DNA from: Patescibacteria group bacterium
GTDB lineage: Bacteria; Patescibacteriota; Minisyncoccia; Minisyncoccales; Staskawiczbacteraceae
NCBI GenBank assembly: GCA_038063015.1
Contig: JBBTVX010000001.1
Coordinates: 2,772 to 66,771, forward strand
Direction of reading: 5' to 3'
DNA length: 64,000 bases
Shown: piece by piece, positions 29,581 through 44,747 of the stretch
Numbering within the stretch: the stretch's first letter is position 1
Layout: every line of letters starts with the position of its first letter
Notes under the pieces: generated by a model
The model's database searches: none
What the model saw: only the letters and a program-made list of their open reading frames with translations
Told to the model about the DNA's origin: nothing
Position numbers and translations under genes: made by a program

Positions 29581-30939
29581 TTAAAAATATTTAAATATTT
29601 TTTCCGCTTCTTTTTTAGATTTTTCCAATTCAAAAATTTTAGGTTCGGCCGGATATAAAATTGTTTTTTCGGGACTAAACTTTTTCTGGTGCCTTTTAAC
29701 GTATTTTTTAACTCTCAAAATATGATAAGCGCTCGTTACTATCACTATTTTTCTTTTTCCTCTCAAAAATGATGATGGCATTTTTGAAAACTGGTCTTTC
29801 GTATTGTTTATATTAAGGTTTTTTGAAACAATTATTTTTTCTTTTGGAAAACCGTAATTCCGCAAAAATTCTTTTTTAATCAATTTTCTCAGATTGTCAT
29901 TTTGTTCGTTTGAAGCGTTATAGTAAACAATCGGACCCTTTATCAAAATATCCTTTGCTTTTATATCCTTATCGTTCATTTTTAATCTTCCCGCTGAAAC
30001 TTGTTTTGCTATTTTAAAAGCGGTCTCAAGCCTGTCTTTATCTTCGTTTCTCTTGTTGTTTGAAATATCTTGGATATTTTCTTCGCCGCCCGAAAGAACA
30101 ATTATTAGGTCCCAGTCATTTTTTGGCTTAGGGCTTTTTTGTTTAATTATTTTTTTTGTCTGCCATAAAATCTTTTTCTCTAATTTCTTTCTGACCAAAG
30201 CGTCCTTCGGTATCATATAACTGTGCCTTATACTCTTATTTATGGCTGCTATTTTTGGATTTTCATCAAGATATTTTAATATTTCTTCCGCGCCAAAATC
30301 TTCTTTCGGCTCAAAATGCTTAATTATATTTTCAACCAGAACTAAATCCTGGGGTTCGTCTACGCAAACCCTTAAGTCCTTGCGAAAAAATTTGGGCGGA
30401 GCTGTTTCAACTTTTATTTTAAACAAATCGGGATTTTCGCAAATAAATGATACTATATGTTCAAGATGATAGGGATTTTTTGTAATTTTAAGAATTTTTT
30501 TAAACGCGCCAAAACTTATAATTTCAATATCTCCCAAACCAAACGGGTATCCTTTAATAAAAAAATAATCTGGTTTGTTTTTTATGCTTTTATATTCTTT
30601 AATGCTTTGGTCAATTAAAACAGGGTCAATAAGCGGGCAATCTCCGGTAATTCTGATAGCCGGGTCAATTTTGAATTTTTCTGCTGCTTCTAAAAATCTT
30701 GAAAGAACGTTATTAAGGCTTCCCTGATAAAAATTAACTTTGCCCCTTTTAATTAACGGCAAAAGAACAGAACTTTTTTTAGTGTCTGGAATTGCCACCA
30801 CTATCTTTTTTGCCAGCTTAGCTTTTTTTGACCTTAAAATAACCCACTCTAATAAATGCTTATTCAATATCTTTTTATTCATTTTTCCTGGTAATCTTTT
30901 TGATTCCATTCTTGCTTGTATAATAATTCCTATATTCAT
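29581..30939 (-). CDS. Fusion: SpsF-type cytidylyltransferase plus DUF218 (YdcF/ElyC-like) domain
   Basis: N-terminus has IIQARMESKRLPGK and ITGDCPLIDPVLID. C-terminus has IIVLSGGEE and VIVTSAYHILRV, typical of DUF218. Confidence 0.65.
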   Translation of the reverse strand: MNIGIIIQARMESKRLPGKMNKKILNKHLLEWVILRSKKAKLAKKIVVAIPDTKKSSVLLPLIKRGKVNFYQGSLNNVLSRFLEAAEKFKIDPAIRITGDCPLIDPVLIDQSIKEYKSIKNKPDYFFIKGYPFGLGDIEIISFGAFKKILKITKNPYHLEHIVSFICENPDLFKIKVETAPPKFFRKDLRVCVDEPQDLVLVENIIKHFEPKEDFGAEEILKYLDENPKIAAINKSIRHSYMIPKDALVRKKLEKKILWQTKKIIKQKSPKPKNDWDLIIVLSGGEENIQDISNNKRNEDKDRLETAFKIAKQVSAGRLKMNDKDIKAKDILIKGPIVYYNASNEQNDNLRKLIKKEFLRNYGFPKEKIIVSKNLNINNTKDQFSKMPSSFLRGKRKIVIVTSAYHILRVKKYVKRHQKKFSPEKTILYPAEPKIFELEKSKKEAEKIFKYF

Positions 30940-30942
30940 AGA

Positions 30943-32016
30943 TTATAAAATTTTGATAAGAATTTTCATCAAATAATTAATTTCTTTTGCGGTCATTGAC
31001 GGATATATAGGAAGGGCTATCAAAGAAGATGTGGCTTTTTTTGTATTTTTGAATAAGTCATCTCTCATTTTTAAATATTGATGCAGCGGCGGATAAACCC
31101 CTCTGCCTATTTCTATGCCATACTTTGTCGCTTCTTTTATAACTTCTATGGGATTTTTATTTATCTCAATCATATAACGCCAAAAAATATTTTCTTTAGA
31201 CAAAAATGGAATCTTTGCTACACTTTTTAACGAACGGCCATAAGCTTTAGCTATATTTTTTCTTTTTTTAACAAATTGATTTAGCTGGTCAAGCTGGCTT
31301 GTTCCCAAATAAGCGTTTAAATCGCTAATTTTATAATTATATTGCACATTATAGCTGTCGGGTTTTTTAAGACGCTGAGCTACTATTGTGCTTTCGTAAT
31401 CGCCCAAAAATTTTGCTTTTTCAAATAAATCTTTTGAATCAGTCAAAAACACCCCTCCGCTACCAGTAGTCATCATTTTTGAAGAGTGCACAGAAAAAAT
31501 TGATATTGCTCCATAACTGCCCAATTTTTTGCTAAGATACTCACCCCCTAAAGATTGAGTTGCATCTTCTATTACAGGAATTCCAAATTTTATAATTTTT
31601 TCTATTTCAGCTGGAAAACCAAACATATGGGGAACAATTATTACTTTAGTTTTTAAACTGATTTTCTTTTTCAAATCTAAAAAAGAAATATTAAAATCGC
31701 TTTTTTCAACATTAAAATTGCAATCAACCAGCTTTACTTCTGCTTTTACATAAGAAATGGCATTTAACAGAGCAACGCAGGTATATGAGGGACAAATAAC
31801 TTCATCTTTTTCTTTAATATCCAAAGCCAGTAAAGCCAAATGCAAAGCAGATGTTCCAGAATTTGTTGATATGGCGTATTTTCTTCCAATATATCCTGCA
31901 AACTTATTTTCAAACTTTTTAATAGCCTCGTCTGAAAAAATATCCAAAACAGCCAGTTTTTTAAAACTTTTAGCGTCTTTTTTGGTTATAGTGGGCCTGT
32001 TTAATGGAATTTTCAT
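30943..32016 (-). CDS. DegT/DnrJ/EryC1-family PLP-dependent sugar aminotransferase
   Basis: TNSGTSALHLALLAL, FSVHSSKMMTTGSGG (Lys motif), YNYKISDLNAYLGTSQL. Confidence 0.8.
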   Translation of the reverse strand: MKIPLNRPTITKKDAKSFKKLAVLDIFSDEAIKKFENKFAGYIGRKYAISTNSGTSALHLALLALDIKEKDEVICPSYTCVALLNAISYVKAEVKLVDCNFNVEKSDFNISFLDLKKKISLKTKVIIVPHMFGFPAEIEKIIKFGIPVIEDATQSLGGEYLSKKLGSYGAISIFSVHSSKMMTTGSGGVFLTDSKDLFEKAKFLGDYESTIVAQRLKKPDSYNVQYNYKISDLNAYLGTSQLDQLNQFVKKRKNIAKAYGRSLKSVAKIPFLSKENIFWRYMIEINKNPIEVIKEATKYGIEIGRGVYPPLHQYLKMRDDLFKNTKKATSSLIALPIYPSMTAKEINYLMKILIKIL

Positions 32017-32078
32017 TTTAATGCTTCTATTATAGTTGTATAATTAATGCCATAAAAAAAGTCAGATAGCATTGCTAC

Positions 32079-33137
32079 CTAACTTTTAGCGACTAAACTC
32101 CAATCAAGAGGAGTGCCGCGCGTTATATCTGCCGAAGCTTTTCGCCCTAAAATTTCAGGCAGAAATTTGGGAGCAAGACCATACCCGGGGCGAATAGACC
32201 CGATATTTTCTCTGCTGAATTCTTCTCCTGCCTTTATGTCGCATACCGCAAACAAAGACCTCTTCCCTGCCATATTGGCTAACTCACTTTTTAATACACC
32301 GTATTGGACTTTGCCAATAGCTTTTTCCGCTTCTCTGACTGATTTGACCAGCTGCCTTAGCTCTTCTGGCTCTATGGAAAAAGAAGAATCCGGTCCCCCA
32401 TCAGACCTTTTCAAAGTAAAATGCTTTTCAATTATGCAGACTCCAAAAGCGACAGATTCCGCAGACATGGTAATGCCAAGGCTGTGGTCTGACAACCCTG
32501 AAACAATATTAAATCTTTCTTTTATGTCGGGTATTGTAGCTAAATTCATATCTTCTGGCTTTGCAGGATAACTGCTTACGCAATGTAAGAGCGCGATATC
32601 CTTGGTTCCGTTTTCCCGCAATGTGGAAATAGCAAGCTCTATTTCTTCTAAGTTTGCCATTCCTTTTGATATTATAACCGGCTTTCCTGTTTTAGCTATT
32701 TTCACAAGAAACTCAATATCATTTGTTTCAAAAGAAGATATTTTATAAGCCGGGACATCCATTTTTTCCAAGAAATCAACTGCGGTTGCGTCGTAAGCAG
32801 TAGAAAAAATAATAATTCCGCAATCATCTGCTTTTTTTTTAAGTTCAGGATACCATTCCCATGACATATATGCTGTTTTGTAAAGGTCGTACAGCGTTTT
32901 TCCATCCCAATCAGGATTGGCATCTTTGACAACAAAACTGTCTTCTTTGCAATCAATGGTAAGGGTGTCTGGCGTATAAGTCTGCAGTTTTATGGCATCT
33001 GCTCCTGCTTCTGCGGCAGCTTTGATTATTTCTTTTGCTCTTTCCAAATTTTGATTATGGTTGGCTGACATTTCAGCAATAATAAAAACTGGTTCTCCTT
33101 CGCCTATCCATTTGTTGGAAATCTTAATTTTTTGCAT
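32079..33137 (-). CDS. pseI: Nonulosonic acid synthase (NeuB family), most likely pseudaminic acid synthase
   Basis: FIIAEMSANHNQNLERAKEIIKAAAEAGADAIKLQTY, SDHSLG, and a C-terminal SAF/antifreeze-like domain. The Pse assignment rests on the pseB/pseC context. Confidence 0.75.
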   Translation of the reverse strand: MQKIKISNKWIGEGEPVFIIAEMSANHNQNLERAKEIIKAAAEAGADAIKLQTYTPDTLTIDCKEDSFVVKDANPDWDGKTLYDLYKTAYMSWEWYPELKKKADDCGIIIFSTAYDATAVDFLEKMDVPAYKISSFETNDIEFLVKIAKTGKPVIISKGMANLEEIELAISTLRENGTKDIALLHCVSSYPAKPEDMNLATIPDIKERFNIVSGLSDHSLGITMSAESVAFGVCIIEKHFTLKRSDGGPDSSFSIEPEELRQLVKSVREAEKAIGKVQYGVLKSELANMAGKRSLFAVCDIKAGEEFSRENIGSIRPGYGLAPKFLPEILGRKASADITRGTPLDWSLVAKS

Positions 33138-33153
33138 AAAAATTGTAATTTTT

Positions 33154-33837
33154 TTATTTTTTAACCATAATAATCCAGTCGGAATTTTTATTTTTTAAAT
33201 TATCAAAAGTAGTTTCTGTTTTTTCAATGACAATCTCTTCAAACTTGCTAAAAACTTTATTTATATCTCCTTTATTCAAAAAGCGCATAATCATATCTTT
33301 TTCGTTTGTTTCTGAAATATTTAAGACAAATGTGTTTTTTTCTATTTCTTTTCCCTTGCCAAATCTATAATCATCGGCGCTTCTGGTAAAAATAAACGCC
33401 TTTCTTCCCTTCTTTAAAATCCTATAAACTTCATCTACTGATTTTTGATAGCCCTCGCTATCATTATAATAAAAAACGCCGTAAGAAATTACTCCGTCAA
33501 AAAAATTATCTTTAAACGGCTGATTCTCCATGCTGGTATTTTTGAGCGTAGCCGTTAATTTTTTTTCTTGAAGCCGTTTTTTTGTAACATTTAAACCTGT
33601 TCCTGAAATGTCTGTAGCATAAGTTTGAAATCCTTCTTTAGCCAAAAAAACAGTATGAACGCCTGCCCCGCATCCTAAATCCAATATTTTGAACCGGCTC
33701 CTTTCTTTTAAATCTTTGGGGAATTGACTAAATACAAACCTGACCACATGGTCGTTTGGATATTTGGGCTGGAATCTTTCTTCTGAATGCAAATCTTCCC
33801 ATTTGGTTTTCATTGCAACGTTTAAATTATTTTTCAT
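33154..33837 (-). CDS. Class I SAM methyltransferase
   Basis: ILDLGCGAGVHTVFLAKEGF. Start set at ATG 33837 because the track start 33846 is a TTG. Confidence 0.75.
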   Translation of the reverse strand: MKNNLNVAMKTKWEDLHSEERFQPKYPNDHVVRFVFSQFPKDLKERSRFKILDLGCGAGVHTVFLAKEGFQTYATDISGTGLNVTKKRLQEKKLTATLKNTSMENQPFKDNFFDGVISYGVFYYNDSEGYQKSVDEVYRILKKGRKAFIFTRSADDYRFGKGKEIEKNTFVLNISETNEKDMIMRFLNKGDINKVFSKFEEIVIEKTETTFDNLKNKNSDWIIMVKK

Positions 33838-35068
33838 TTTTAACAAGTTTAATTTCTTTTAATTTATTTACAAAATCTAAAACATCGTTAAACTTCATAT
33901 CCAATTCTTCCGCTATGTCAAATACAGTTTTATCTCCCTCAAGATTCAGCATAATTTTTTCAATATTCTGGTTTAATTCTAAATTTTCTCTCCAATCCAC
34001 CCAAAAGCCGTAGCCCGATAAAAATATCGGCCCTTTGAAATTTCTCTTAGGCGCAAAATCCCTGTCAATAATGTTTAATATTTCTAAAATCAAATCCCTT
34101 GATTTTTCCAATCTTTGTTCTGAAATAATGGCGGGATTATCGTCTGACGTATGATATTCGGGGTAAGGGTATTTGCTGATTGAAATCATTGGAATATTAA
34201 CGCCCGGGCCGTTAAAAGCAATTTCATCATTTGCCACAACTGTCCTAAAAGCTCCCTCTGTGAATTTTTTAAGTTCTCTTTTCATCACATATCTGGCGAT
34301 TCTGTCTATGCGCGCGTCGCCCTGTTTTGTCAGCTGCAGGGCGTAAATATCATCGCTTCCAAGCATTTCAAGAAAAATTCCGCATTCAATTTTTGAAATT
34401 AAATCTTCATTTTGGCTCAAATAAGCTATTGACCCTATGGTTTCCGGGACAAATAAAAATTTATATGTGTAGTAATTATTCTTCTTGCTCATTGCTTTGG
34501 CAAGAGCAACTAAGACTGAAACTCCGGCCAAATCATCATTCGCCTGCCCTGGATGGCAAAGGTGAGCGGCCAAAATAATTATTTTATCTGTTTTTCCTTT
34601 TATTGTATAATCTCCGACTTTCAAATTTCCTTTTTCAAATTTAGAATCAATAAAAACTTTGTATTTGTCTTTTGTAAATTCTTTTAATTTATTATCTTGA
34701 ATGCAAAACCCCCAATCTTTTTGATAATATTTAAACTCGAAAGGAACAGCGTCTGGTCTTTCTGGATTTGTGTGTAAATGCTGAAATAGCTCCTCCTTGC
34801 TTACAATTTTATCAATTGGCAAAGAATAAGAAACAATATGCAGGGGGTGGTCTTTTAAATTCAGCATCCTTTTACCGTCTAAATCTTCAATAAAAGCGCT
34901 GCTTACAGTCCATTTTTCCGGAACAATCCATGTCCAGCATTTTGTTCCCGTGGGAATTTTATGAATTTTTAAAGGAATTATTTTTGAAATATATTCCAAT
35001 GATTCGTCAAATCCGTCAGAGACAATATCCCTTCTTTTAAGCCACAAATCATTAATTAATTTCATCAT
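33827..35068 (-). CDS. DUF4910/DUF2172 aminopeptidase-like (M28-fold) protein with C-terminal winged-helix domain
   Basis: IHKIPTGTKCWTWIVPEKWTV and the AHLCHPGQANDDLAGV metal-site-like motif match the polysaccharide-cluster DUF4910 family. It has an ATGA overlap with the upstream gene. Confidence 0.65.
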   Translation of the reverse strand: MMKLINDLWLKRRDIVSDGFDESLEYISKIIPLKIHKIPTGTKCWTWIVPEKWTVSSAFIEDLDGKRMLNLKDHPLHIVSYSLPIDKIVSKEELFQHLHTNPERPDAVPFEFKYYQKDWGFCIQDNKLKEFTKDKYKVFIDSKFEKGNLKVGDYTIKGKTDKIIILAAHLCHPGQANDDLAGVSVLVALAKAMSKKNNYYTYKFLFVPETIGSIAYLSQNEDLISKIECGIFLEMLGSDDIYALQLTKQGDARIDRIARYVMKRELKKFTEGAFRTVVANDEIAFNGPGVNIPMISISKYPYPEYHTSDDNPAIISEQRLEKSRDLILEILNIIDRDFAPKRNFKGPIFLSGYGFWVDWRENLELNQNIEKIMLNLEGDKTVFDIAEELDMKFNDVLDFVNKLKEIKLVKNEK

Positions 35069-35877
35069 ATTTTTGTATTCGTTTTAATAAAACAAGTTGG
35101 ATCATTTTTAAACATTTTTATACCTTCTCGACAAATGTCGCCTATTATAGCAACGCTTATTTTAGCGCAACCAAGGGGCAATTTTTTAAGCAAACCGCTG
35201 TCTAAAAGGTTTTTTTCAATTTTACTAAAATCAGGAATTGCGCTTTCGTCTAATGGTCTAACATAATATTCATATTCATCATTATATACTTTATTTTTAA
35301 TTTTAATCTTTCCCTTAAATTTCTTGGTGTATCTATAAGAAACTCCTATCTTTTCCTCGATATAATGAATCTGTGTGCAGACGAAATAATCAACCCCGAA
35401 TATAATATATTTACTATCTCTAATATTCGCAAGTTTATCATATATTGAACCTTTTCCAAAACTGTTTTTGCTAAGATTGCTAGTTAATTCTTCGGCTCTT
35501 TTTCCAATGGCGGCAACTGAAAATATCGGATGAATGCTTCTATAAGCGTCCTTTCTTTTACGCAATTCTTCAGTGAATAATCCCACTGTTGACGGCGTGT
35601 TATCTGGGTCATAAATTTCATTATTGCAAAAAGAGTATGTAAATGTGGGGACAATCAAAGTTCCTCCTTTTCCTATAGTTTTCAAAAATGCTTCTATAAA
35701 AACATTAGCGAATTCGGTCTTGTCGACGATATCGCCTAATTTACCGAATTTTGACAGGTCGGCGTGGACCATCGCCACATCTCCTTTTTTAATTCCGGAT
35801 TTCTTGATAGTTTTGACTATATCTTGAAAAACAAATCCTTTTTGTCCGCATTTAAATATGATTTTTTCTTTCTTCAT
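35065..35877 (-). CDS. AAC(3)-fold (Antibiotic_NAT) N-acyltransferase, probable amino-sugar N-acyltransferase
   Basis: GDVAMVHADLSKFG and GGTLIVPTFTYSF are the AAC(3)-family signature. The gene sits between the ACP and DUF4910 genes. Confidence 0.7.
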   Translation of the reverse strand: MKKEKIIFKCGQKGFVFQDIVKTIKKSGIKKGDVAMVHADLSKFGKLGDIVDKTEFANVFIEAFLKTIGKGGTLIVPTFTYSFCNNEIYDPDNTPSTVGLFTEELRKRKDAYRSIHPIFSVAAIGKRAEELTSNLSKNSFGKGSIYDKLANIRDSKYIIFGVDYFVCTQIHYIEEKIGVSYRYTKKFKGKIKIKNKVYNDEYEYYVRPLDESAIPDFSKIEKNLLDSGLLKKLPLGCAKISVAIIGDICREGIKMFKNDPTCFIKTNTKI

Positions 35878-36110
35878 AATTCTATGCCTTTTGAACGAAG
35901 CGTATTTTTAATATCGCCTAAAGATTTGACCTTCAACACTTCATTCATGTTAAAAGATACTTTAAACTGCTTTTCCAATTCAGCAATAAGCAATAAATAA
36001 TTCATAGAATCCCAATTGGGAATTCCTTCTACCGTCAGGGAATCTTTAATTTTGTCCGGCGTTAATTTAAAAATATCAAAAATTATTTTATTAAATTTTT
36101 CCATTTTCAT
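35874..36110 (-). CDS. Acyl carrier protein
   Basis: About 78 aa. MKMEKFNKIIFDIF...EGIPNWDSMNYLLLIAELE carries the DSM phosphopantetheine-Ser motif. Start taken at ATG 36110 (or 36104). The longer track ORF overlaps the FkbH gene. Confidence 0.7.
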   Translation of the reverse strand: MKMEKFNKIIFDIFKLTPDKIKDSLTVEGIPNWDSMNYLLLIAELEKQFKVSFNMNEVLKVKSLGDIKNTLRSKGIEL

Positions 36111-37161
36111 TTGATAATAAGTTTGTGGCCACCCAATATGGCGAATCAATAATATCATCAATTGGCACCGGATTCTCTTTAAAGTATTTTTCCAAAAAGT
36201 CTTGGGCTGGTTTGTTCTTTTCAGTTTGGACAAATGTTATTGATAAATTTTCAGCCTGGTTATCTTTGGCGATTTTTGCGATAGCTGCCAAAAATGCTTC
36301 TTCAACGCCTCGCCCGATAACTCTGCAGCTCATTAAAAATTGATCAACATGCCATAACTCAGCGCCCTCTTTTACAACAGCAAAGCTAATTATTCCGTAA
36401 TCGCCAAAACAATCCGTTAATCTGCCGTAAAATATTCGATAGTCTTTGTTATTCATAAAATCTGCGATGTCTTTTTCTGACAACTCATATTTGTTAAAAT
36501 TGAATTGATTGGTCTTGCCGGTAAGCTGGGCTAAGCGCGCCAATTGAGACGGATCGTCTATAAATATCTGCAATTCCAACCCCAAACTTTTTAAAAACTC
36601 TTTCTGGTTGTTAAAAGATTTCTCAGATTCGCGACGCAATCTTTCAGTTGTATAAAAATTCCCCCTCATTTTGTCTTCATCTGTCAGGGCGGCTAAATCA
36701 AAATATGGAAGGCCAATTAAAAACTTTGTATAATCTGAAGGATTAGATGGCATTTCTGGAGTTTCAACTTCCGACAAAATTGCTTTGACCAGCGCTCTAT
36801 TTACCGGGTCATCATCTAAAAATACCATTGAATCAAGGCCGATATTTATTTCTTTTGCCAATTCTTTTAAATTGCTGGCCTTGTCATTCCAATTAATTCG
36901 CGCAGCTGCAAAATTATTTTCTCTCAAAATCATATTTGGGTGAGTTCTAATGACTCTTATGGCATCCTCGTAATTATTACGGCTGTTAATGGCTAAAATT
37001 ACTCCCTTATTATGTAAATCTAAAAGAGCTTGCTGAAAAGCAACAAAACCCGCTCCCGGTCCGGCAAGGGAGAGTTTTATGCCGTTAAAGCCGTCCTCTC
37101 CCACAATACCGCCCCAAAGAGTGTTATCAAGATCTAATACTATGCATTTTTTAGCGTTCAT
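36091..37161 (-). CDS. FkbH-like HAD-IIIC phosphatase/acyl-loading protein
   Basis: CIVLDLDNTLWGGIVGEDG (HAD-IIIC motif I), LAINSRNN, VFLDDDPVNR, and a C-terminal GNAT-like half. This is the FkbH-domain architecture. Confidence 0.75.
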   Translation of the reverse strand: MNAKKCIVLDLDNTLWGGIVGEDGFNGIKLSLAGPGAGFVAFQQALLDLHNKGVILAINSRNNYEDAIRVIRTHPNMILRENNFAAARINWNDKASNLKELAKEINIGLDSMVFLDDDPVNRALVKAILSEVETPEMPSNPSDYTKFLIGLPYFDLAALTDEDKMRGNFYTTERLRRESEKSFNNQKEFLKSLGLELQIFIDDPSQLARLAQLTGKTNQFNFNKYELSEKDIADFMNNKDYRIFYGRLTDCFGDYGIISFAVVKEGAELWHVDQFLMSCRVIGRGVEEAFLAAIAKIAKDNQAENLSITFVQTEKNKPAQDFLEKYFKENPVPIDDIIDSPYWVATNLLSNENGKI

Positions 37162-37175
37162 TTTTTACCAACTTT

Positions 37176-37541
37176 TTACTTTTTGAAAGTAATGCATACC
37201 GCCTGGACGATTGATTTGGTATGCGAAATGCTAATTATTGATTTATATTTCTTTTCCATTATCTTGTTTAAAAATTTAACCTTAGGCGCGCCGTTTTTAT
37301 CGTTTGTTATTTCTATCTCGTTAAAAGCGATATTGTCTCTAATTGTCTTTTTTACCGCCTCTTTAGCGACAAACCTTGCGGCGAAATGAGAAGAAGGATT
37401 CGGCTTAGACAGAGAATATTTTTTTTCTTTCCGGGTATAAATTCTATCAAAAAAACTTCTGTTTTTTTCCGGGTCTAATTTGGCAAATCTATCAATATTT
37501 TCCATATCTAAACCGACGCCGATGTTATTTATCATTTTCAT
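37176..37541 (-). CDS. acpS: Holo-ACP synthase (4'-phosphopantetheinyl transferase, AcpS type)
   Basis: 121 aa with IGVGLDMENIDRF, FAARFVAKEAVKK and ISISHT. It has an ATGA overlap with the upstream gene. Confidence 0.8.
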   Translation of the reverse strand: MKMINNIGVGLDMENIDRFAKLDPEKNRSFFDRIYTRKEKKYSLSKPNPSSHFAARFVAKEAVKKTIRDNIAFNEIEITNDKNGAPKVKFLNKIMEKKYKSIISISHTKSIVQAVCITFKK

Positions 37542-38278
37542 AAAACAATATATGATATATCCGGTTCGTAATAAAAATTTTTAATCGTATGTTTTTTTAA
37601 ATCTAATTCTTCCATTAAGGCGACTGTTTCCCCCGGCCATTTGGGATTATTTATTTCATCAAAAACTAAAATTGATCCGGCCGCCATTCTTGGTAAAAAC
37701 ATTTTTAAAGCCTCTTTAGTGGGCTTGTAAATATCGAAGTCCAAATATAATAAAGATATTACAAGATGCTGATTTTTTTCAAGAAATTCCGGTCCGGTTT
37801 TCAAAAAATCCCCTTTAACTAATTTAATTTTACTGATATGGGAAAGAAATCGGTTTGAATCATATAAATCTATTGCTTTTTTAAGTTCGTCATAGGAATC
37901 GGCGAATATGCCGCCTGTTTTTGCGTCAACATTTTTATTTTCCGCCATGTCTTTAATATCAACGTCGGGAAAACCGGAAAAAGTGTCAAACCCGATAATT
38001 TCTCTATGATAATTTGTCGGTTCATATATTGCCGATAGTTTAGCCCAAGCCATCAATCCGGACCCCCTGAAAACTCCGCATTCCACAATAGAGCCCTTAT
38101 TGTCTAAAATCATCTTAAACAGTTCGTGTTGGGCTAAAAAACGGGAAATCGCCTGCCGTGAAGCATATTTGGGAAAATCATCAACAAGCTCTATGGCTGG
38201 TTTATTTTCTTGGGCAATTAGATTGATTAAGTGCCGGTTTAATTCTTCAGAATAATTTTTTTCTTTTTCTGTTCTCAT
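37538..38278 (-). CDS. TylF/MycF-family SAM-dependent O-methyltransferase (second copy)
   Basis: VECGVFRGSGLM, GFDTFSGFP, LYLDFDIYKPT. Confidence 0.7.
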   Translation of the reverse strand: MRTEKEKNYSEELNRHLINLIAQENKPAIELVDDFPKYASRQAISRFLAQHELFKMILDNKGSIVECGVFRGSGLMAWAKLSAIYEPTNYHREIIGFDTFSGFPDVDIKDMAENKNVDAKTGGIFADSYDELKKAIDLYDSNRFLSHISKIKLVKGDFLKTGPEFLEKNQHLVISLLYLDFDIYKPTKEALKMFLPRMAAGSILVFDEINNPKWPGETVALMEELDLKKHTIKNFYYEPDISYIVL

Positions 38279-39396
38279 ATTATTTTTTTAATTGAATTAA
38301 TAACATATTGAATATCTTTATTAGCCATCTTGGGAAAAAGAGACAAAGTGATTGCTCTTTCATAATATTTTTCAGCTTTTGGGAAATCACCTTTTTTGTA
38401 CCCAAATTCCTTTTTATAAAATGGATGAAGGTGCAAAGGCATATAATGAACCTGCGCGCCGATTCCTTGCTCCTGCAAAGCATCAAATATATTCCTCCTG
38501 GAATGCTCTTGAACTTGAATAGGATATATGTGCCATGCTGATTTTACGTAATCTTTTTCTGTCGGCAATATAATTTCTTTGATATTTTGGAACGCTTTAT
38601 TATATTTAACCGCAATTTCTCTTCTTTTTTTTAAAAATTTATCTATTTTTTTTAACTGGCTTAAGCCCAAGGCGCATTGAAAATCAGTAAGGCGATAATT
38701 ATAACCGATGTCTTTTATTTCATAATACCATTTGCCGTTTTCCGGCTTTTTTATTATTCCGTGATGCCTGAATGTTTTCAATTTTTCGTAAAAATCTTTA
38801 TTGTTTGTCAGTATCATTCCTCCTTCTCCTGTTGTAATATGTTTTACCGGATGAAAACTTAAAATTGTTATATCGGCCAAACTTCCAATTTTCTTTCCTT
38901 TGTATTCTGCCCCTAAAGCGTGGCAGGCGTCTTCTATAACTAACAATTTATATTTCTTGGCGATTTTTAAAATTTTGTCATAATCGCAGGGATGGCCGGC
39001 AAAATCAACTAAAACTATTGCTTTTGTTCTTTTTGTTATTTTTTTCTCAATTTTTTCCGGGTCAATGTTCAAAGTATCTTCTTTAACATCGGAAAAAATC
39101 GGCCTAGCCCCTAAAACCACCATCATGTTGGCGGTGGCGGCAAAAGTTAAAGGAGTAGTTATTATTTCGTCTCTCGCATTAATGCCAGCCACGCTGTATG
39201 CCGAATGGAGGGCGGCTGTTCCCGATGAAACTGCCACTGCGTATTTTGCTCCGCAGTATTTAGCAATTGCCTTTTCAAACTCTTCAACCTTTGGACCCTG
39301 GGTCAGCCAATCGCTTCTTAAAGCTTTCACAACTTCTTTTATATCCTCTTCGTCCACCCATTGGCGGCCATATGAAATTATTGGAATTTTAGCCAT
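38275..39396 (-). CDS. pseC: UDP-4-amino-4,6-dideoxy-N-acetyl-beta-L-altrosamine transaminase-like (PseC-type DegT aminotransferase)
   Basis: IPIISYGRQWVDEEDIKEVVKALRSDWLTQGPKVEEFE, SFHPVKHITTGEGG, YNYRLTDFQCALGLSQL. Start set at ATG 39396 because the track start 39444 is a TTG. Confidence 0.75.
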   Translation of the reverse strand: MAKIPIISYGRQWVDEEDIKEVVKALRSDWLTQGPKVEEFEKAIAKYCGAKYAVAVSSGTAALHSAYSVAGINARDEIITTPLTFAATANMMVVLGARPIFSDVKEDTLNIDPEKIEKKITKRTKAIVLVDFAGHPCDYDKILKIAKKYKLLVIEDACHALGAEYKGKKIGSLADITILSFHPVKHITTGEGGMILTNNKDFYEKLKTFRHHGIIKKPENGKWYYEIKDIGYNYRLTDFQCALGLSQLKKIDKFLKKRREIAVKYNKAFQNIKEIILPTEKDYVKSAWHIYPIQVQEHSRRNIFDALQEQGIGAQVHYMPLHLHPFYKKEFGYKKGDFPKAEKYYERAITLSLFPKMANKDIQYVINSIKKII

Positions 39397-40322
39397 TGCG
39401 TTGTTTTTAATATTCCCTGTTCCAAATTTATTGTTGGTTTCCAATTTAAAACATCTTCTGCTTTGCTTGAATCGGCGCGCATATTCATTACTTCGGCATG
39501 AGGATGATGGTGCTTAATAAACTTTATTTCTATTTTATCGTCGGCTATCTTTTCTGCTAAATCCTTTATTTTCACCTCTATCCCAGAACCGGCATTAAAA
39601 ATCTGTCCAATCGCTTTATCGCTGAAACAGGCTCTGGCAATAAATTCAGCGCAATCTTCTATATAGAAAAAGTCTCTTCCTTGTTCCCCGTCTCCAAAAA
39701 TCTCTAACGGCTCTCCTTTGAGCTTCTTATTAATAAATATGCTCATTACTCCTCCCTCGGAATCGCTCCTTTGATAAGGACCGTAAATGCTAAACGGCCT
39801 TAGAATAACAACCGGTAAATTATATGTTTTAGAATATGACATTACAAGGTTTTCGCCGTTAATTTTACTGGCTGTATACGGACATGAAGCGTAAAGAGCA
39901 TGCTCTTCCGTTATTTTACGGCCCGGTTCGGCTGTTTTATAAACTAAAGCGGAGCTTGCAAAAACCATTTTTACATTATGTTTTCTGCATTGTTCAAGAA
40001 TGTTAAAGGTGCCCAAACAATTGTCATTAAAGCTTTTTTCCGGATTATCAATGCTCTCCTGCACGTCTATTGCCGCGGCAAAATGAATGCATATATCAAA
40101 ATTATTTTTAAAAAGTTCTGAAACTAATTCTTTATCTTTTATATCTCCTATTATAAAATCCTCTAATTTATCTCTAAATTCTTCGATGTTTTTTTCAGAG
40201 CCGTTTGAAAGGTTGTCTAAAATCCAAATTTTATGTCCTTTATTGAGCAGATTTTTCGCAGTCCAACGGCCCATAAAACCCGCTCCTCCTGTTATTAAAA
40301 TATTTTTAACCTTTATATCCAT
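39378..40322 (-). CDS. NAD-dependent nucleotide-sugar epimerase/dehydratase/reductase (extended SDR)
   Basis: ILITGGAGFMG, ASSALVYK, YTASKINGE (YxxxK). Confidence 0.8.
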   Translation of the reverse strand: MDIKVKNILITGGAGFMGRWTAKNLLNKGHKIWILDNLSNGSEKNIEEFRDKLEDFIIGDIKDKELVSELFKNNFDICIHFAAAIDVQESIDNPEKSFNDNCLGTFNILEQCRKHNVKMVFASSALVYKTAEPGRKITEEHALYASCPYTASKINGENLVMSYSKTYNLPVVILRPFSIYGPYQRSDSEGGVMSIFINKKLKGEPLEIFGDGEQGRDFFYIEDCAEFIARACFSDKAIGQIFNAGSGIEVKIKDLAEKIADDKIEIKFIKHHHPHAEVMNMRADSSKAEDVLNWKPTINLEQGILKTTQWLKFQ

Positions 40323-41727
40323 AATCCCACCAATTTACAGGTAAATTATATTTTTGCATTTTATCTTGAACGGCTTTAAAAGCTTTCTTTTTAAATTCCT
40401 CAATTTCTGGAGCTGTAATATCATAGGGCTCGCCAACGCTGGTATTGCAATCATAAAGCTCCCAGTCCTTATGAAATATCCTATATCTAAATTTTTCTGG
40501 ATTCCTGAATATCTCTGTTCCCGGATTTGGAGCTAACAAATTAAACTCTGCTCTTGAATTTTCCACAATTAATTTAAACGACATCATTTCAAGAAGTTTT
40601 TTAAAATTCTTTTTTACTGTGGTAAAAGTGGCGTCGCAACATTTTAAAGCAATATCAAGCGTCTGCTCAAGGGTTTGTTTTGTTTCTCCTGGAAGCCCCA
40701 AAATAAATCCGGCGTGAAACAGCATTTCGTTTCTCTGAAACATTTCGGCGATTTCTAATATCTTAGACACGGTAATAGCCCTCTTGTTAACTTTCAGAAC
40801 TTCGTCCGAACCCGACTCCATTCCTATATAAAGATTGGTACATCCCGCTTCTTTCAATTTTACAAGAATTTCGTCAGTAATGCCGTCTGGCCTTGTTGCT
40901 GCCCGAAATTGTCCAACATTCTTACTTTTTATTAATTCTAAAACTTGTTTTGTGCGGTCCGGAAATAAGCCCATAAATTCGTCCTCATATCTTATCTCAA
41001 GTTTTGGATTTAACGAAAGAGCAAGCTCTAGCTCTTGCGATATTGTATTCGCGGGACGACAGCGAATTCCTCTTCCGTGCACTGACGGCAATTCGCAAAA
41101 AGCGCAATTATGAGGGCACCCTCGCGTACACATTAAAACAACATAGGCATATTTTTTCATATCAAGCATATCATATGCCGGTATAGGTATTTCTTCGGGA
41201 TTTAACAATGGGCCCATCGGATTATCAATAATTTGGCCGTTTTCTCTAAAACTGATGCCTTGTATTTGAGAAAAAGGTTTGCCTTGTGAAAGCTCAAATA
41301 AAGGACGCTCTCCCTCTCCTCTGACAACAACGTCTACCCATGGACACTCATTTAAGGTTTCGTGAGCCATAAATGTAACATGCACGCCCCCAATTACCAC
41401 TATTGTTTTCGGCTCTGCCTCTTTTACCGCTTTGGCTATTTTCGTTGCGGGAATATACGATATTGTTGTTGATGTTATTCCAACAATGTGCGGTTTAGAG
41501 TCGTTAATATAATATTTTACAACCTGTTGTATCTCGTTTATTGAGCGAGAGAGAAGAGATGGTTTTTCATACTGCATCTGTTTTGTGTCCAAAACATCAA
41601 CTTTTACTCCTGCTTTGCGCAGATAGGCCGCTAAATACATAAGCCCCTTGGGAGGAAACTGCGTCAACCAGTTTATATCCCAGGGTCTTTCTGGAAATGG
41701 CGGGTCTATTAATAAAATATTCAACAT
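40306..41727 (-). CDS. Class B (cobalamin-binding domain) radical SAM enzyme
   Basis: N-terminal B12-binding-like region (HIVGITSTT...VVIGGVHVT) and the radical SAM motif CPHNCAFC. Confidence 0.75.
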   Translation of the reverse strand: MLNILLIDPPFPERPWDINWLTQFPPKGLMYLAAYLRKAGVKVDVLDTKQMQYEKPSLLSRSINEIQQVVKYYINDSKPHIVGITSTTISYIPATKIAKAVKEAEPKTIVVIGGVHVTFMAHETLNECPWVDVVVRGEGERPLFELSQGKPFSQIQGISFRENGQIIDNPMGPLLNPEEIPIPAYDMLDMKKYAYVVLMCTRGCPHNCAFCELPSVHGRGIRCRPANTISQELELALSLNPKLEIRYEDEFMGLFPDRTKQVLELIKSKNVGQFRAATRPDGITDEILVKLKEAGCTNLYIGMESGSDEVLKVNKRAITVSKILEIAEMFQRNEMLFHAGFILGLPGETKQTLEQTLDIALKCCDATFTTVKKNFKKLLEMMSFKLIVENSRAEFNLLAPNPGTEIFRNPEKFRYRIFHKDWELYDCNTSVGEPYDITAPEIEEFKKKAFKAVQDKMQKYNLPVNWWDYGYKG

Positions 41728-42728
41728 AAATCTACTTCTGTTTCTAATAATTTATTTATTGCTTCTTGCGATATAAATTTACCCTTATTTGAAGAAACAA
41801 CGGGATTCTCAATAGATTTCATGTCCTGATATTTTACTCTAACTCGCGAATAATCAAGCATTGGAAAAATAACATACATATCATCTGATTCTACCGACCG
41901 GGAAAGCTCTTCTTCTGACATTATGTGTTCATGTATTTTTTCGCCCTCGCCTTTTTCTGTAATAATTGTCTCTGTTTTTTTGCCATTGGCATATCTATTT
42001 GTCATTGCCTCTGCCAAATCAACAACTTTCAATGTTTTCATTTTCCAAACAAAAGTTTCTCCTCCTTTTACAAGCTCAATGGCTTTAAAAATTAAACTTA
42101 CCGCTTCTTGCATTGTAATCACAAAACGGGTCATCTCTTTGTTGGTAATTGTAATGGGAACTCCGTCCTCAATCTGTTTTTTAAAACGAGGGATAACCGA
42201 ACCATTGGACCCTATCACATTTCCAAAACGCACAGAAGCAAACAGTGTTTTTTTATCTCCTTTATAATAATTCGCCGAAGAAATAAGTTTTTCTCCCAAA
42301 AGCTTAGTCATGCCCATTACGCTTAATGGCTGAGCCGCTTTGTCGGTGCTGGAAAAAATTACTTTTTCAACATTTTCATTTCTGGCGCAATCTATAACGT
42401 TCTGTAAACCCTTTATGTTTGTTTTTACTGCTTCAAAAGGATTATATTCACAAGCATATACATGCTTCATTGCCGCTAAATGAACAACGATATCAATTCC
42501 CTCCATTGCAAGTTTTAATCTGTCAAAATCTCTCACGTCGCCAATTAAATAACGCAACCTTTCTTCTCCGATAAAACTATTCTTTAATTTATATATCTCA
42601 TTTTCCGATAAATCAAAAACACGGATAACATTTACATCATGCTTCAACATTTCTTTAATCAGCGCTTTGCCAACCGAACCAGCTCCGCCGGTTACCAATA
42701 TTTTTTTATTTTTTAATTCTTCTTGCAT
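41721..42728 (-). CDS. pseB: UDP-N-acetylglucosamine 4,6-dehydratase (inverting), FlaA1/PseB/CapD-short type
   Basis: ILVTGGAGSVGKAL, YLIGDVRDFDRL, HLAAMKHVYACEYNPFEAVKTNI, STDKAA, MGMTKLLGE, RFGNVIGSNGSVIP. It aligns closely by eye with PseB-type proteins. Confidence 0.8.
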   Translation of the reverse strand: MQEELKNKKILVTGGAGSVGKALIKEMLKHDVNVIRVFDLSENEIYKLKNSFIGEERLRYLIGDVRDFDRLKLAMEGIDIVVHLAAMKHVYACEYNPFEAVKTNIKGLQNVIDCARNENVEKVIFSSTDKAAQPLSVMGMTKLLGEKLISSANYYKGDKKTLFASVRFGNVIGSNGSVIPRFKKQIEDGVPITITNKEMTRFVITMQEAVSLIFKAIELVKGGETFVWKMKTLKVVDLAEAMTNRYANGKKTETIITEKGEGEKIHEHIMSEEELSRSVESDDMYVIFPMLDYSRVRVKYQDMKSIENPVVSSNKGKFISQEAINKLLETEVDLC

Positions 42729-42739
42729 GAAATTTTAGC

Positions 42740-43834
42740 TTAGCTTATACAACCCAGTCGCTCAAAGGCGCGAGCCAGCTCTTCTGGTGTCGCCTTATGG
42801 GGAATACGCAGTACGCGACAAGGCGCGCCAGACACTGCCTTCTCCAAAATAACGCGAGCGCGCCAAAAATCAGCTCCGAGGTCTTCTAAACCCAAAGACC
42901 CCATTTCAAAAAGTCGCTTAAGGTCGTTTTCAAGCTCTTGGTAGAGAACAGCAAAAATGCGACGGGCCATCCATGTCCCGTTTTGTTCCTCTATTGAGAA
43001 ATCAGGAACATGACATCTAAGAAGCAATATTGTTTTTGTGACAGATCCTTTTGTTCCCAAACATTTTGCATCAAATATTTGTTCAGCGGGCACAATATCT
43101 ACATAGTCTCGGCGGATAAAAGGAATAAAGGCAATTCTATTGTAAACTCCCTTACTCTTGAGAAATTTATCAATAATCCCCCGGAATGGAACGTTAGCGT
43201 AGAGGTTCCATATAATGGAACGAGTGACGCGTTTTTTCAAACTCATGTGTTTGCGAGAAGCGAATAACTCGGGATAAACCGAACTATGATATTCCTTAAG
43301 CACGAATGCTTTATGAAACGCCAAACACATGCCGGATTCTGTGAGCGCTATCATGTCGTCGCCCAGCAGTTTATACCCTTTTTCTTTTACGAGGAAACCA
43401 GAGAGCGCTGTTTTGCCAACTCCTCCGCAACCTGCTAAAATAGTAACGCCTCCCGCGGGGTTTTGCAGGGCAGCCGCATGGGCGAACGAAATGCCGTTAC
43501 TAATAAAAAGTTGTTGAATAAGACCGGTAAAAGAAAACATGGCATCGGTGTATACGGCGTATCCCGTCGGTTTTTTTTCTATTGCCAAGCGAGAGTCGCG
43601 GTTCGCGCACCACGAATCTCTGCCACCTTCTGAATTTTGGAATATCTCGTTTTCTTGAGGAAAAGAAAACATCTCAAAAGGATTAACCAATATCATCAAG
43701 GGGTTAGAATGGTCTTGTTCAGAACTTTTAAAAGACCCCAACTGCCGATTGATTGATTTCAAAACCCACGGACGAATTTTTGGATTGACGCGCACGGTTA
43801 TAAGATCGTGAATGTGGTATACGTGTTCATTCAT
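42740..43834 (-). CDS. HprK-like P-loop protein (uncharacterised), compositionally atypical
   Basis: LAGCGGVGKTALSG followed by LLGDDMIAL resembles the HPr-kinase C-terminal-domain Walker-A plus GDD arrangement. The N-terminal 130 aa give no call. GC is visibly higher than in neighbouring genes. Confidence 0.4.
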   Translation of the reverse strand: MNEHVYHIHDLITVRVNPKIRPWVLKSINRQLGSFKSSEQDHSNPLMILVNPFEMFSFPQENEIFQNSEGGRDSWCANRDSRLAIEKKPTGYAVYTDAMFSFTGLIQQLFISNGISFAHAAALQNPAGGVTILAGCGGVGKTALSGFLVKEKGYKLLGDDMIALTESGMCLAFHKAFVLKEYHSSVYPELFASRKHMSLKKRVTRSIIWNLYANVPFRGIIDKFLKSKGVYNRIAFIPFIRRDYVDIVPAEQIFDAKCLGTKGSVTKTILLLRCHVPDFSIEEQNGTWMARRIFAVLYQELENDLKRLFEMGSLGLEDLGADFWRARVILEKAVSGAPCRVLRIPHKATPEELARAFERLGCIS

Positions 43835-44095: not shown

Positions 44096-44124
44096 ATGAT
44101 AAACCCCCCTTAACTTAATGTCAA
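44096..44124 (-). promoter_or_regulatory. Sigma-70-like promoter predicted to give a leaderless mRNA for the HTH gene
   Basis: The minus strand reads TTGACA (44124-44119), a 17-nt spacer, TATCAT (44101-44096), then 6 nt to the ATG at 44089. AT-rich background makes chance matches possible. Confidence 0.4.
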
Positions 44125-44724: not shown

Positions 44725-44747
44725 AGATTTATTGATTAGTTTTAATA

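Follow-up and report, generated by a model that had tools for sequence, protein, structure and literature searches.

A nonulosonic-acid gene cluster from groundwater Patescibacteria with a probable pseudaminic acid-type pathway of noncanonical parts and a conserved B12-radical SAM enzyme

The gene cluster described here lies in a 64,000-nucleotide stretch (the window; positions 2,772 to 66,771) of contig JBBTVX010000001.1 from the patescibacterial assembly GCA_038063015.1. With a probability of about 0.6, it represents the nonulosonic-acid branch of a surface-glycan operon of groundwater Patescibacteria (candidate phyla radiation [CPR]), in which a pathway of the pseudaminic acid (Pse) configuration is assembled from noncanonical parts. 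Three groups of genes can be distinguished: module A, with genes for a Pen-like dehydratase, a cobalamin-binding radical S-adenosylmethionine (SAM) enzyme, a Pal-like reductase, and PseC; an acyl module, with genes for an FkbH-domain protein, an acyl carrier protein (ACP), an AAC(3)-like acyltransferase, and associated proteins; and module B, which combines a long DegT aminotransferase, a GT-B domain, a CTP_transf_3 domain, and a GFO/IDH/MocA oxidoreductase. Campylobacter offers a genetic precedent for the FkbH module, and the locus matches the Bacillus Pen/Pal variant of the pathway at Pal and, in part, at Pen. Pse, legionaminic acid (Leg), and related nonulosonic acids shape the recognition of bacterial surfaces, flagella, and pili, and their known biosynthesis relies on six or seven soluble enzymes and no radical chemistry. 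With a conserved cobalamin-dependent radical SAM enzyme among its first steps, this biosynthesis would gain a new reaction and perhaps a new sugar, and an unnamed but well-delimited radical SAM family would acquire a function.

All open reading frames (ORFs) named in the original prediction, an annotation made from the DNA sequence without database searches, were found where it had placed them, on the minus strand, in a single array that runs from 43834 to 16860 (Table 1). The genes are densely packed, mostly overlapping by 4 to 47 nt or separated by gaps of 22 nt or less (one gap is 62 nt), and belong to a surface-glycan operon of more than 40 kb. The E values of the profile matches lie far outside what chance would give. 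The proposed Pse-type core could be upheld at the equivalog level for both PseC and PseI. The NeuB-family synthase encoded at 32079 to 33137 clearly exceeds the cut-off of the PseI model, whereas its score of 313 bits against the NeuB model stays under the cut-off of 400. Its closest solved structure is the Pse synthase 8H2C (297 bits), ahead of SpsE (187 bits) and NeuB (160 bits). The second DegT aminotransferase, which had been noticed beside the cytidylyltransferase, is indeed there and retains the lysine that binds pyridoxal 5'-phosphate (PLP); it scores ∼200 bits with each of the PseC and LegC models and reaches neither cut-off.

The other four members of the canonical PseBCHGIF set are missing as such. 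In a permissive NCBIfam scan (E value of ≤1) of seven candidate ORFs or domains, nothing matched PseG (TIGR03590) or PseH (TIGR03585), and the best score for PseF (TIGR03584) was 21.1 bits against a cut-off of 205.7, in line with the earlier description of the cytidylyltransferase at 29581 to 30939 as SpsF type rather than PseF type. No GNAT (Acetyltransf), hexapeptide, or GT28 (Glyco_tran_28_C) Pfam domain was found in any ORF of the window of at least 90 to 100 aa, antisense ORFs included. The reported lack of a stand-alone PseG or PseH in the window was thus borne out, and these scans rule out canonical PseG, PseH, or PseF proteins hidden in ORFs that had been called otherwise. Compared with the canonical pathway of Helicobacter and Campylobacter, the backbone logic would be the same (formation of 4-keto-6-deoxy-L-AltNAc, transamination, N-acylation, UDP release, condensation with phosphoenolpyruvate [PEP], and CMP activation), but four of the six enzymes appear to be swapped: PseB for the Pen-like dehydratase and Pal, PseH for an AAC(3)-fold enzyme, PseG for a 2-epimerase-fold domain, and PseF for an SpsF-type protein. 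That the product is something other than Pse5Ac7Ac, as originally suggested, is very likely.

The replacement at the entry step has the closest known counterpart. The dehydratase encoded at 41721 to 42728 had been described as PseB type, and its gene is present. However, its score against the PseB model TIGR03589 (315 bits; E value, 4.6e-94) falls short of the equivalog cut-off of 407.75 bits, and the catalytic Tyr is replaced by Met. Among all Protein Data Bank (PDB) entries, the best match was Pen (6BWC; 260 bits), followed by the Helicobacter pylori PseB/FlaA1 (236 bits), an FnlA-type enzyme (203 bits), CapE (196 bits), and PglF (164 bits). Pen-type 5,6-dehydratases are recognized by the motif TDK...Yx3K (PMC8987622); the protein from the window has Pen as its best PDB match, yet alignments place a Met, in the motif STDKAAQPLSVMGMTK, where Pen and FlaA1 have the Tyr of the short-chain dehydrogenase/reductase (SDR) family (…YGATK). 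A Met is also found at this position in CapE, the FnlA-type enzyme, and PglF (the alignments show it for CapE and 4J2O), and Met138 is invariant among all the orthologs of the dehydratase that were examined. The SDR encoded at 39378 to 40322, previously listed as an additional tailoring enzyme, turned out to be an ortholog of Pal: against all PDB entries, it matches Pal from Bacillus thuringiensis (6BWL) with 348.8 bits (E value, 2.6e-103), and the next match, GalE, reaches 141 bits.

In B. thuringiensis, the PseB step is split between two enzymes, Pen, which produces UDP-6-deoxy-GlcNAc-5,6-ene, and Pal, which converts it into UDP-4-keto-6-deoxy-L-AltNAc (PMC5109656, PMC8987622, and PMC7439481). 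Because of the match to Pal and this published chemistry, the SDR can be regarded as a core enzyme of a known alternative route rather than a tailoring enzyme, and the cluster is predicted to use the two-enzyme Pen/Pal entry in place of PseB. The seven-enzyme CMP-Pse pathway of B. thuringiensis (Pen, Pal, Pam, and so on; Li et al. 2015, as described in the three papers cited above) resembles the window in this entry and in the PseC-type and PseI-type enzymes that follow it, and a radical SAM gene between pen and pal and a Met in place of the Tyr of Pen are features of the window only. The Bacillus and Geobacillus loci also have PseF and PseG orthologs, whereas the window has no PseG-, PseH-, or PseF-type proteins. 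Given the Met-for-Tyr replacement and the low score against the PseB model, the product of this dehydratase could differ from that of Pen.

The radical SAM gene located between pen and pal had been viewed as an interruption of the pathway. Instead, it occupies the central position in a strictly conserved Pen-like/radical SAM/Pal-like trio, with an overlap of 7 nt with pen and one of 17 nt with pal. Its product has the class B radical SAM architecture, with an N-terminal B12-binding domain and a core that carries the CxxxCxxC motif (CPHNCAFC, at residue 204). No NCBIfam model reaches its cut-off (the best matches are HpnJ, with 157 bits against a cut-off of 578, and BchE, with 148 bits), AprD4 appears among both the NCBIfam and PDB matches, and, among solved structures, QCMT (9CCB), a glutamine C-methyltransferase, is nearest (78 bits). 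The protein does not fall into any of the characterized HpnJ, BchE, PhpK, GenK, Fom3, or QCMT subfamilies. In a search of 5.8 billion proteins, its own family proved to be sharply bounded: ∼70 clusters share 57 to 93% identity over the full length, after which identity drops to 35%. Members of this family carry only generic names, where they are named at all.

Genome neighborhoods were compared for 16 loci with close orthologs of the radical SAM enzyme (L001 to L013 and L038 to L040) and for 27 other loci. The Met-type Pen motif was found ∼600 nt upstream of the radical SAM start in all 16 of the former and in none of the latter. A Pal-like motif, FGDGxQxRDF, follows downstream in 11 of the 16, and SDR-sized ORFs are found downstream in L005, L007, and L009. 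For L002 to L013, synteny was judged by scanning for motifs, comparing the lengths of ORFs, and aligning a few pairs of sequences; in L038 to L040, the trio arrangement was confirmed by Pfam-annotated neighbors. The genes that come later vary, and the acyltransferase downstream of the trio is LbH/PglD-like, GNAT, a formyltransferase, or AAC(3)-like, depending on the locus. The gene overlaps, the tight family, the Pen motif in all 16 loci, the Pal-like gene downstream, and the variation of the later genes all suggest that the radical SAM enzyme would act while the sugar is still linked to UDP, in concert with Pal and the Met-type dehydratase. In the literature searched, this trio appears not to have been described; the search found no link between radical SAM enzymes and pseudaminic or other nonulosonic acids, and neither UDP-sugars nor glycans figure among the cases in a 2026 review of B12-dependent radical SAM enzymes.

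As to the reaction itself, C-alkylation is the preferred guess, albeit a speculative one, and C6 of the 5,6-ene intermediate would be one possible site. The only precedent found for a radical SAM protein right after a Pen/TunA-type SDR dehydratase comes from tunicamycin biosynthesis: a 5,6-ene exo-glycal arises through TunA and TunF, and TunB, a putative radical SAM enzyme, is predicted to create a new C-C bond at its C6 (PMC5365060 and PMC8987622). This likeness is one of published descriptions, and there are differences: the putative TunB works with TunM and couples a uridine radical, and the product is an antibiotic. Methylation at C6 of an ene or enone intermediate would be appealing on chemical grounds. 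An alkylation at C6 of the (4-keto-)5,6-ene would give a carbon-extended or C-branched precursor and, eventually, a ten-carbon 9-C-methyl “dec-ulosonic” acid or some other C-methylated Pse or Leg. This outcome is tentative and, taken as a whole, rather unlikely; if true, CPR bacteria, Omnitrophota, and some archaea would display an as yet undescribed class of sugars on their surfaces. Several observations call for caution. Gene order is no proof of reaction order, so the radical SAM enzyme could act later, for example, on the N-acyl group, and BchE, HpnJ, and OxsB, none of which is a methylase, score about equally with it, so its reaction could be something other than methylation.

Indeed, it is possible, though not favored, that the radical SAM member of the trio is not a methyltransferase at all. 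It might instead catalyze a radical epimerization, a dehydration or deoxygenation (as the AprD4/AprD3 pair does), or a rearrangement with the Pal-like SDR as its reductase. The presence of the nonmethylating HpnJ and BchE among the top NCBIfam matches and of AprD4 in both lists would agree with such a role, and a partner dehydratase without the catalytic Tyr hints at altered chemistry in the first step. Nevertheless, the B12-binding domain is strong (79 bits), the nearest structure is that of a C-methyltransferase, most of the characterized cobalamin-dependent radical SAM enzymes are methylases (PMC12931638), and the very close similarity of the SDR to Pal argues for a retained Pal role.

The hosts of the trio are labeled Patescibacteria, Omnitrophota, and Firestonebacteria, and one copy lies on a contig assigned to a Methanoperedens metagenome-assembled genome (MAG; L039). 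The trio is accompanied by PseI-type synthases in the window, L007, L038, and L039 and by NeuB/LegI-like synthases in L003 and L040, the latter of which also has a true NeuC. This argues against a trio that is specific for Pse. PseG-type genes were not found in L003, L038, and L039. The Methanoperedens-labeled contig (European Nucleotide Archive [ENA] accession ERZ24908688; positions 1 to 21419) combines the trio with PseC and PseI of equivalog level, all within a few kb of a gene for the oligosaccharyltransferase AglB (STT3), which hints at a use of this pathway in archaeal N-glycans. The radical SAM protein encoded there is 65% identical to the bacterial one, which suggests lateral transfer. 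In L003, a related patescibacterial locus, the trio and pseC are followed (at 13467 to 14138) by a gene for a “pseudaminic acid biosynthesis-associated methylase” (TIGR03587; 159 bits against a cut-off of 112) and then by genes for an SpsF-type cytidylyltransferase, a NeuB/LegI-like synthase, an LbH acetyltransferase, and a PIG-L-type deacetylase, a far more compact pathway. L041 encodes, at 41 to 2095, a 684-aa protein with Epimerase and Polysacc_synt_2 domains that looks like a fusion of Pen and Pal; it retains the Tyr and has no radical SAM partner within the stretch analyzed. The Met/Tyr state thus covaries with the radical SAM partner (Met in all 16 trio loci and Tyr in one partnerless fusion), in a sample that is too small to generalize.

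The second unusual part of the cluster, which the original prediction did not mention, is a block of seven genes (33154 to 38278) between pseC and pseI. It encodes an FkbH-domain protein, a small carrier protein, and a phosphopantetheinyl transferase and, in the same block, an AAC(3)-like acyltransferase and a Cj1295-type protein, flanked by two methyltransferases. FkbH-type proteins form glyceryl-S-ACP from a glycolytic intermediate. The PDB matches of the protein encoded at 35065 to 35877 are AAC(3) enzymes, YokD, and FrbF. The gene order of the acyl module is identical in L001, and in L007, pseC is followed by ORFs that agree in order and length. By its domain content, this block is probably the best substitute for PseH and the strongest clue to the N-acyl group. 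Because FkbH chemistry yields glyceryl-S-ACP, the AAC(3)-like enzyme would be expected to move a glyceroyl or O-methylglyceroyl group from the ACP to the sugar amine. Since there is no PseH, the simplest target would be the 4-amino group, which becomes N7 of Pse. Alternatively, by analogy with the hypothesis of Hitchen et al., the target may be N5, where the acetyl group would be swapped after deacetylation by the Cj1295-like protein. The cluster is likely to make a nonulosonic acid of the Pse configuration whose N-acyl group is of the glyceroyl type.

This assignment draws on the flagellin glycosylation locus of Campylobacter jejuni 11168, which encodes the FkbH-domain protein Cj1302, the N-acetyltransferase Cj1296/7, and the aminopeptidase-like Cj1295 (PMC3068675), the last of which is needed for 7-acetamido-5-(2,3-di-O-methylglyceroyl)amino-Pse (PMC3068675 and PMC7099621). 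The same domain types are found inside a Pse locus in both cases. However, the C. jejuni module (Cj1295 to Cj1302 in NCTC 11168) is added to a full PseBCHGIF set and modifies N5, whereas in the window, which has no PseH, it may supply the only acyl transfer to the 4-amino group. Two points weaken the assignment: the likeness to Cj1295 to Cj1302 is one of domain architectures and published descriptions only, and the PP-binding score of the ACP (20.6 bits) is marginally below the cut-off of 20.8. N-Glyceroyl Pse is also a natural product of Tannerella forsythia (Pse5Am7Gra; PMC5378307 and PMC5420450), for which the genes responsible were stated to be unknown (PMC5378307). The locus would provide a compact gene set for N-glyceroyl- or O-methylglyceroyl-Pse, a question that is open in Tannerella and has been addressed only by hypothesis in Campylobacter.

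The trio and the acyl module also bear on an alternative in which the cluster makes ordinary Pse5Ac7Ac or a simply N-acylated Pse, the extra enzymes serve other sugars or lipid parts, and the acetyltransferase and hydrolase are encoded elsewhere. There is room for this, as only 64 kb of the genome is visible and the surroundings offer other possible substrates. The window, with a G+C content of ∼33%, is dominated by a one-strand surface-glycan locus with two Wzx-type flippases and several glycosyltransferases of the GT2, GT4, and GT9 families; the same locus carries ADP-heptose genes, a WecB epimerase, and a second NDP-hexose pathway (NTP_transferase and 4,6-dehydratase; 18786 to 20515). Still, this alternative appears quite improbable. 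The radical SAM gene overlaps both of its neighbors in the trio, an arrangement that all 16 loci, from different phyla, preserve while their other genes vary; the FkbH module sits right between pseC and pseI, with same-length ORFs after pseC in L007; and there is no GNAT, LbH, or GT28 gene in the window, just as PseG-type genes were not found in three of the trio loci.

For the release of UDP, no hydrolase candidate emerged other than the N-terminal domain of the 805-aa fusion protein, in agreement with the original proposal, but the PseG-like fold assumed for it was not borne out. Sequence searches with residues 1 to 350 gave weak Epimerase_2/WecB matches only. An AlphaFold (AF2) model built from 60 sequences (pLDDT, 92; pTM, 0.90) has the fold of UDP-GlcNAc 2-epimerases of the NeuC/WecB type: nearly all of the top 50 PDB matches in Foldseek were UDP-sugar 2-epimerases, including the hydrolyzing NeuC (6VLB and 6VLC) and human GNE, with TM scores of ∼0.67 and 10 to 18% identity. 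PseG was not among these 50 structures, and a PseG-like (GT28) fold was therefore rejected. The homologs of this GT-B domain show complete or almost complete conservation of an Asp, a Gly, and a His-Pro pair. These homologs are either free-standing proteins of ∼350 aa or fused to CTP_transf_3, and nearly all of them are unnamed or hypothetical. The genes for free-standing homologs are found in NeuB clusters, always after a long DegT gene, and are followed by a CTP_transf_3 gene or, in L043, directly by neuB; genes for a GFO/IDH/MocA oxidoreductase, a GNAT protein, and a DUF218 protein are usually nearby (L041 to L043). Judging from the modeled fold, the first domain of the fusion probably is a UDP-sugar hydrolase that replaces PseG, in a role analogous to those of PseG, LegG, and NeuC. 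An 805-aa ORF in L003 is unrelated to this fusion, and their equal length is coincidental.

This assignment raises two difficulties. First, a NeuC-like mechanism would invert the configuration at C2, which is a poor fit with a PseI-type synthase. If hydrolysis by the 2-epimerase-fold domain did invert C2, as in NeuC and LegG, the backbone would not be Pse but its C5 epimer, resembling acinetaminic acid, or another stereoisomer. The nearest folds, those of UDP-GlcNAc 2-epimerases including the hydrolyzing NeuC, with the same conserved His-Pro and acidic residues, would be consistent with inversion, as would the co-occurrence of the trio with Leg-type genes in L040. Such a backbone is nonetheless considered very doubtful: PseC (503 bits) and PseI (469 bits) both pass cut-offs that were built for the L-altro route, and at 11 to 18% identity to real epimerases, the chemistry of the domain may differ from theirs.

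Second, the homologs of the GT-B domain draw weak precomputed Pfam matches to polysialyltransferase (PF07388) and monogalactosyldiacylglycerol synthase (MGDG_synth), so this domain could be a transferase. It would then be a nonulosonic-acid transferase fused to a CMP-sugar synthetase, and UDP would be released by some other protein (DUF218, the P-loop protein, or WbqC) or nonenzymatically. A fusion to CTP_transf_3 would channel the donor, and DUF218 is a constant neighbor of NeuB and CTP_transf_3. This possibility is nevertheless a fairly weak one, given that a separate candidate transferase, BFO_1060/Capsule_synth-like, is encoded beside the Wzx flippase, that the GT-B gene directly precedes neuB in L043, and that the closest folds are epimerases and hydrolases and not sialyltransferases of the GT38, GT52, or GT80 families.

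CMP activation can be assigned to SpsF-type domains, of which the window encodes two, one in the 805-aa fusion and one fused to DUF218. Both are closest to an uncharacterized cytidylyltransferase (PDB entry 6OEW), and one homolog is called “SpsF” by its JGI source. In L042 and L043, DUF218 and CTP_transf_3 are encoded by separate adjoining genes beside neuB. The Bacillus subtilis SpsF is a proposed CMP-legionaminic acid synthetase, and the Sps pathway of that organism (SpsM, -C, -D, -G, -E, and -F; PMC7439481) shares with the window UDP-linked precursors, a dehydratase with an Mx3K motif (SpsM), and the proposed SpsF cytidylyltransferase; it differs in its Leg backbone and in having neither a radical SAM enzyme nor an FkbH module. 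The replacement of PseG and PseF by 2-epimerase-fold and SpsF-type proteins appears to be undescribed in the literature searched.

The long DegT aminotransferase, the GT-B protein, SpsF-type CTP_transf_3, and the GFO/IDH/MocA oxidoreductase (module B; 20496 to 27241 in the window) recur in L041 to L043, which are unrelated metagenomic contigs, usually next to neuB and with GNAT and DUF218 genes. The long DegT orthologs, 55 to 68% identical, are encoded directly upstream of the GT-B-like gene in these loci, and the GT-B domain orthologs share 37 to 48% identity. The combination of an oxidoreductase, an aminotransferase, and an acyltransferase suggests that module B may convert a hydroxyl into an acylamino group on a nonulosonic acid, for example, to give an 8-amino derivative.

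From the observed family membership, gene order, and conservation of the modules, the following pathway can be proposed; its substrates, the order of its steps, the acyl group, and the radical SAM chemistry are all inferred. UDP-GlcNAc would be converted by the Pen-like dehydratase, the radical SAM enzyme, and Pal into UDP-4-keto-6-deoxy-L-AltNAc (4-keto-6-deoxy-L-altro type), possibly in a C-alkylated form, and PseC would aminate C4. FkbH would load glycerate on the ACP primed by AcpS, and the two methyltransferases may O-methylate it. The AAC(3)-fold enzyme, in place of PseH, would then acylate the amine from the ACP to give a glyceroyl or O-methylglyceroyl amide, and the Cj1295-like aminopeptidase-fold protein may strip an N-acetyl group for replacement. 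UDP would be freed by the 2-epimerase-fold domain and not by PseG, PseI would condense the sugar with PEP, and an SpsF-type cytidylyltransferase rather than PseF would give the CMP-sugar. Further tailoring (oxidation, transamination, and acylation) would probably involve the GFO/IDH/MocA oxidoreductase, the long DegT aminotransferase, the ATP-grasp ligase, the second radical SAM enzyme, and the WbqC-like protein. Finally, the BFO_1060/Capsule_synth-like transferase and Wzx would place the sugar on a lipid-linked glycan.

An identical radical SAM protein is encoded on a groundwater metagenome contig (ENA accession ERZ1292629, “Hain_H43_01um”). For the stretch from pen to pseC (38200 to 42800), 0.92 to 0.98 of the k-mers are present in four independent groundwater metagenome runs, so this stretch is not an assembly chimera; it is also partly present in runs of another study. 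Close relatives sit in MAGs labeled Patescibacteria, Parcubacteria, Staskawiczbacteria, and “Saccharibacteria.” A 327-nt gap precedes the array and contains a predicted promoter-like site. No cobalamin or other riboswitches were found in the window with Rfam at gathering thresholds.

Table 1. Predicted features of the nonulosonic-acid cluster and adjoining genes (coordinates within the window)
Feature	Coordinates	Strand	Evidence
Promoter-like site TTGACA-17-TATCAT	44096..44124	-	Consensus scan, 11/12 matches; consensus match only, predicted
364-aa P-loop protein, first gene of the array	42740..43834	-	No Pfam match; PEPCK/HprK-like fold
Pen/PseB-like UDP-GlcNAc dehydratase	41721..42728	-	Polysacc_synt_2; motif STDK...M138xxxK142
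Cobalamin-binding radical SAM protein, middle of the trio	40306..41727	-	PF02310, 78.9 bits; PF04055, 79.4 bits
Pal ortholog (UDP-6-deoxy-GlcNAc-5,6-ene 4-oxidase/5,6-reductase/5-epimerase type)	39378..40322	-	Extended SDR; Y149xxxK153
PseC aminotransferase	38275..39396	-	TIGR03588, 503.3 bits (cut-off, 423.5); PLP lysine present
TylF-like O-methyltransferase	37538..38278	-	PF05711, 47.5 bits
AcpS-type phosphopantetheinyl transferase	37176..37541	-	TIGR00556, 68 bits (cut-off, 45); PF01648
FkbH-domain protein (glyceryl-ACP-forming type)	36091..37161	-	TIGR01686, 290 bits (cut-off, 147)
Small acyl carrier protein, start codon uncertain	35874..36149	-	WDSM serine motif; 91-aa gene on the ENA contig
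AAC(3)-fold N-acyltransferase, candidate PseH substitute	35065..35877	-	PF02522 (Antibiotic_NAT), 135 bits
Aminopeptidase-like polysaccharide-biosynthesis protein (DUF4910/DUF2172/M28), Cj1295 type	33827..35068	-	DUF4910, 269 bits; PDB 3K9T, 261 bits
Class I SAM methyltransferase	33154..33846	-	Methyltransf_25, Methyltransf_11
PseI pseudaminic acid synthase	32079..33137	-	TIGR03586, 468.6 bits (cut-off, 340.25)
Second DegT aminotransferase	30943..32016	-	PF01041, 232 bits; lysine present
SpsF-type cytidylyltransferase + DUF218 fusion, candidate CMP-sugar synthetase	29581..30939	-	CTP_transf_3, 85 bits; DUF218, 36 bits; PDB 6OEW, 106 bits
Second B12-radical SAM enzyme	27958..29580	-	25-28% identity to radical SAM genes of other loci
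WbqC-like protein	27254..27955	-	PF08889, 256 bits
Long DegT aminotransferase of module B	25934..27241	-	PF01041, 286 bits
805-aa fusion	23533..25950	-	2-epimerase-fold domain, 1-350; SpsF-type cytidylyltransferase, 358-590; HAD phosphatase, 617-790
ATP-grasp ligase, possible aminoacyl/acyl amide ligase	22475..23536	-	Family profile scans
GFO/IDH/MocA oxidoreductase of module B	20496..21515	-	Orthologs with 40-50% identity in L041-L043
Candidate nonulosonic-acid transferase	13935..15377	-	Weak BFO_1060-family match, 33.6 bits (cut-off, 200); weak Capsule_synth

The array opens with a gene for a 364-aa protein that has only 22 homologs, the few named ones from Patescibacteria, in which the Walker A motif GGVGKT is invariant. 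The top Foldseek matches of its AF2 model (pLDDT, 85.6) are ATP-dependent PEP carboxykinases (query TM score, ∼0.5), and the predicted fold also resembles that of HPr kinase. In view of this P-loop fold, the protein was rejected as the missing hydrolase or acetyltransferase. That a gene for what the model suggests to be a PEP-related kinase-like protein heads an operon whose synthase consumes PEP is suggestive. At the other end of the locus, the gene for the candidate nonulosonic-acid transferase adjoins a wzx flippase gene, and L042 has a Capsule_synth gene in the same position. The family to which it shows similarity, far below the cut-off, includes BFO_1060 and Tanf_01245, the Leg/Pse transferases of T. 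forsythia (PMC5420450).

Upstream of the operon, on the same strand (44161 to 47562), are four genes. They encode a membrane protein with DUF6580, a small protein, and two proteins with DUF4430, the transcobalamin-like C-terminal domain; one of these two, of 604 aa, also has an α/α-toroid. The DUF6580 protein is 69 to 72% identical to those encoded directly upstream of pen in L003 (8103 to 8669) and L011 (8093 to 8653). Two more large B12-radical SAM proteins (658 and 557 aa) are encoded, also on the minus strand, at 47822 to 51473, next to a gene for a weakly matching polysaccharide-deacetylase/DUF2334-like protein at 51480 to 52421. The 64-kb window thus contains four cobalamin radical SAM genes in an organism with a small genome, which means that an ultrasmall organism of the B12-auxotroph type devotes over 40 kb and four B12 enzymes to a single surface glycan. 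Because of these four genes and DUF4430, the genes at 44161 to 47562 may be a set for cobalamin capture and uptake. Sequence comparison of the 604-aa protein with the PDB gave no transcobalamin similarity, only α/α-toroid matches of the terpene cyclase type.

Several other genes of the window deserve mention. A minus-strand group at 7647 to 11099 encodes a PfkB kinase, a fusion of a cytidylyltransferase-like domain with a HAD phosphatase, a cupin, and a GT9 heptosyltransferase, a set of ADP-heptose type that is unexpected in a glycan locus of Patescibacteria. Divergently from the operon, the plus strand encodes an 863-aa Wzy_C protein (O-antigen ligase or PglL-like; 52651 to 55242) with a C-terminal tetratricopeptide repeat (TPR) region, possibly a glycan ligase or O-oligosaccharyltransferase, followed, at 55249 to 56616, by a 455-aa phosphoribosyltransferase fused to a nucleoside phosphorylase of the PNP/UDP type.

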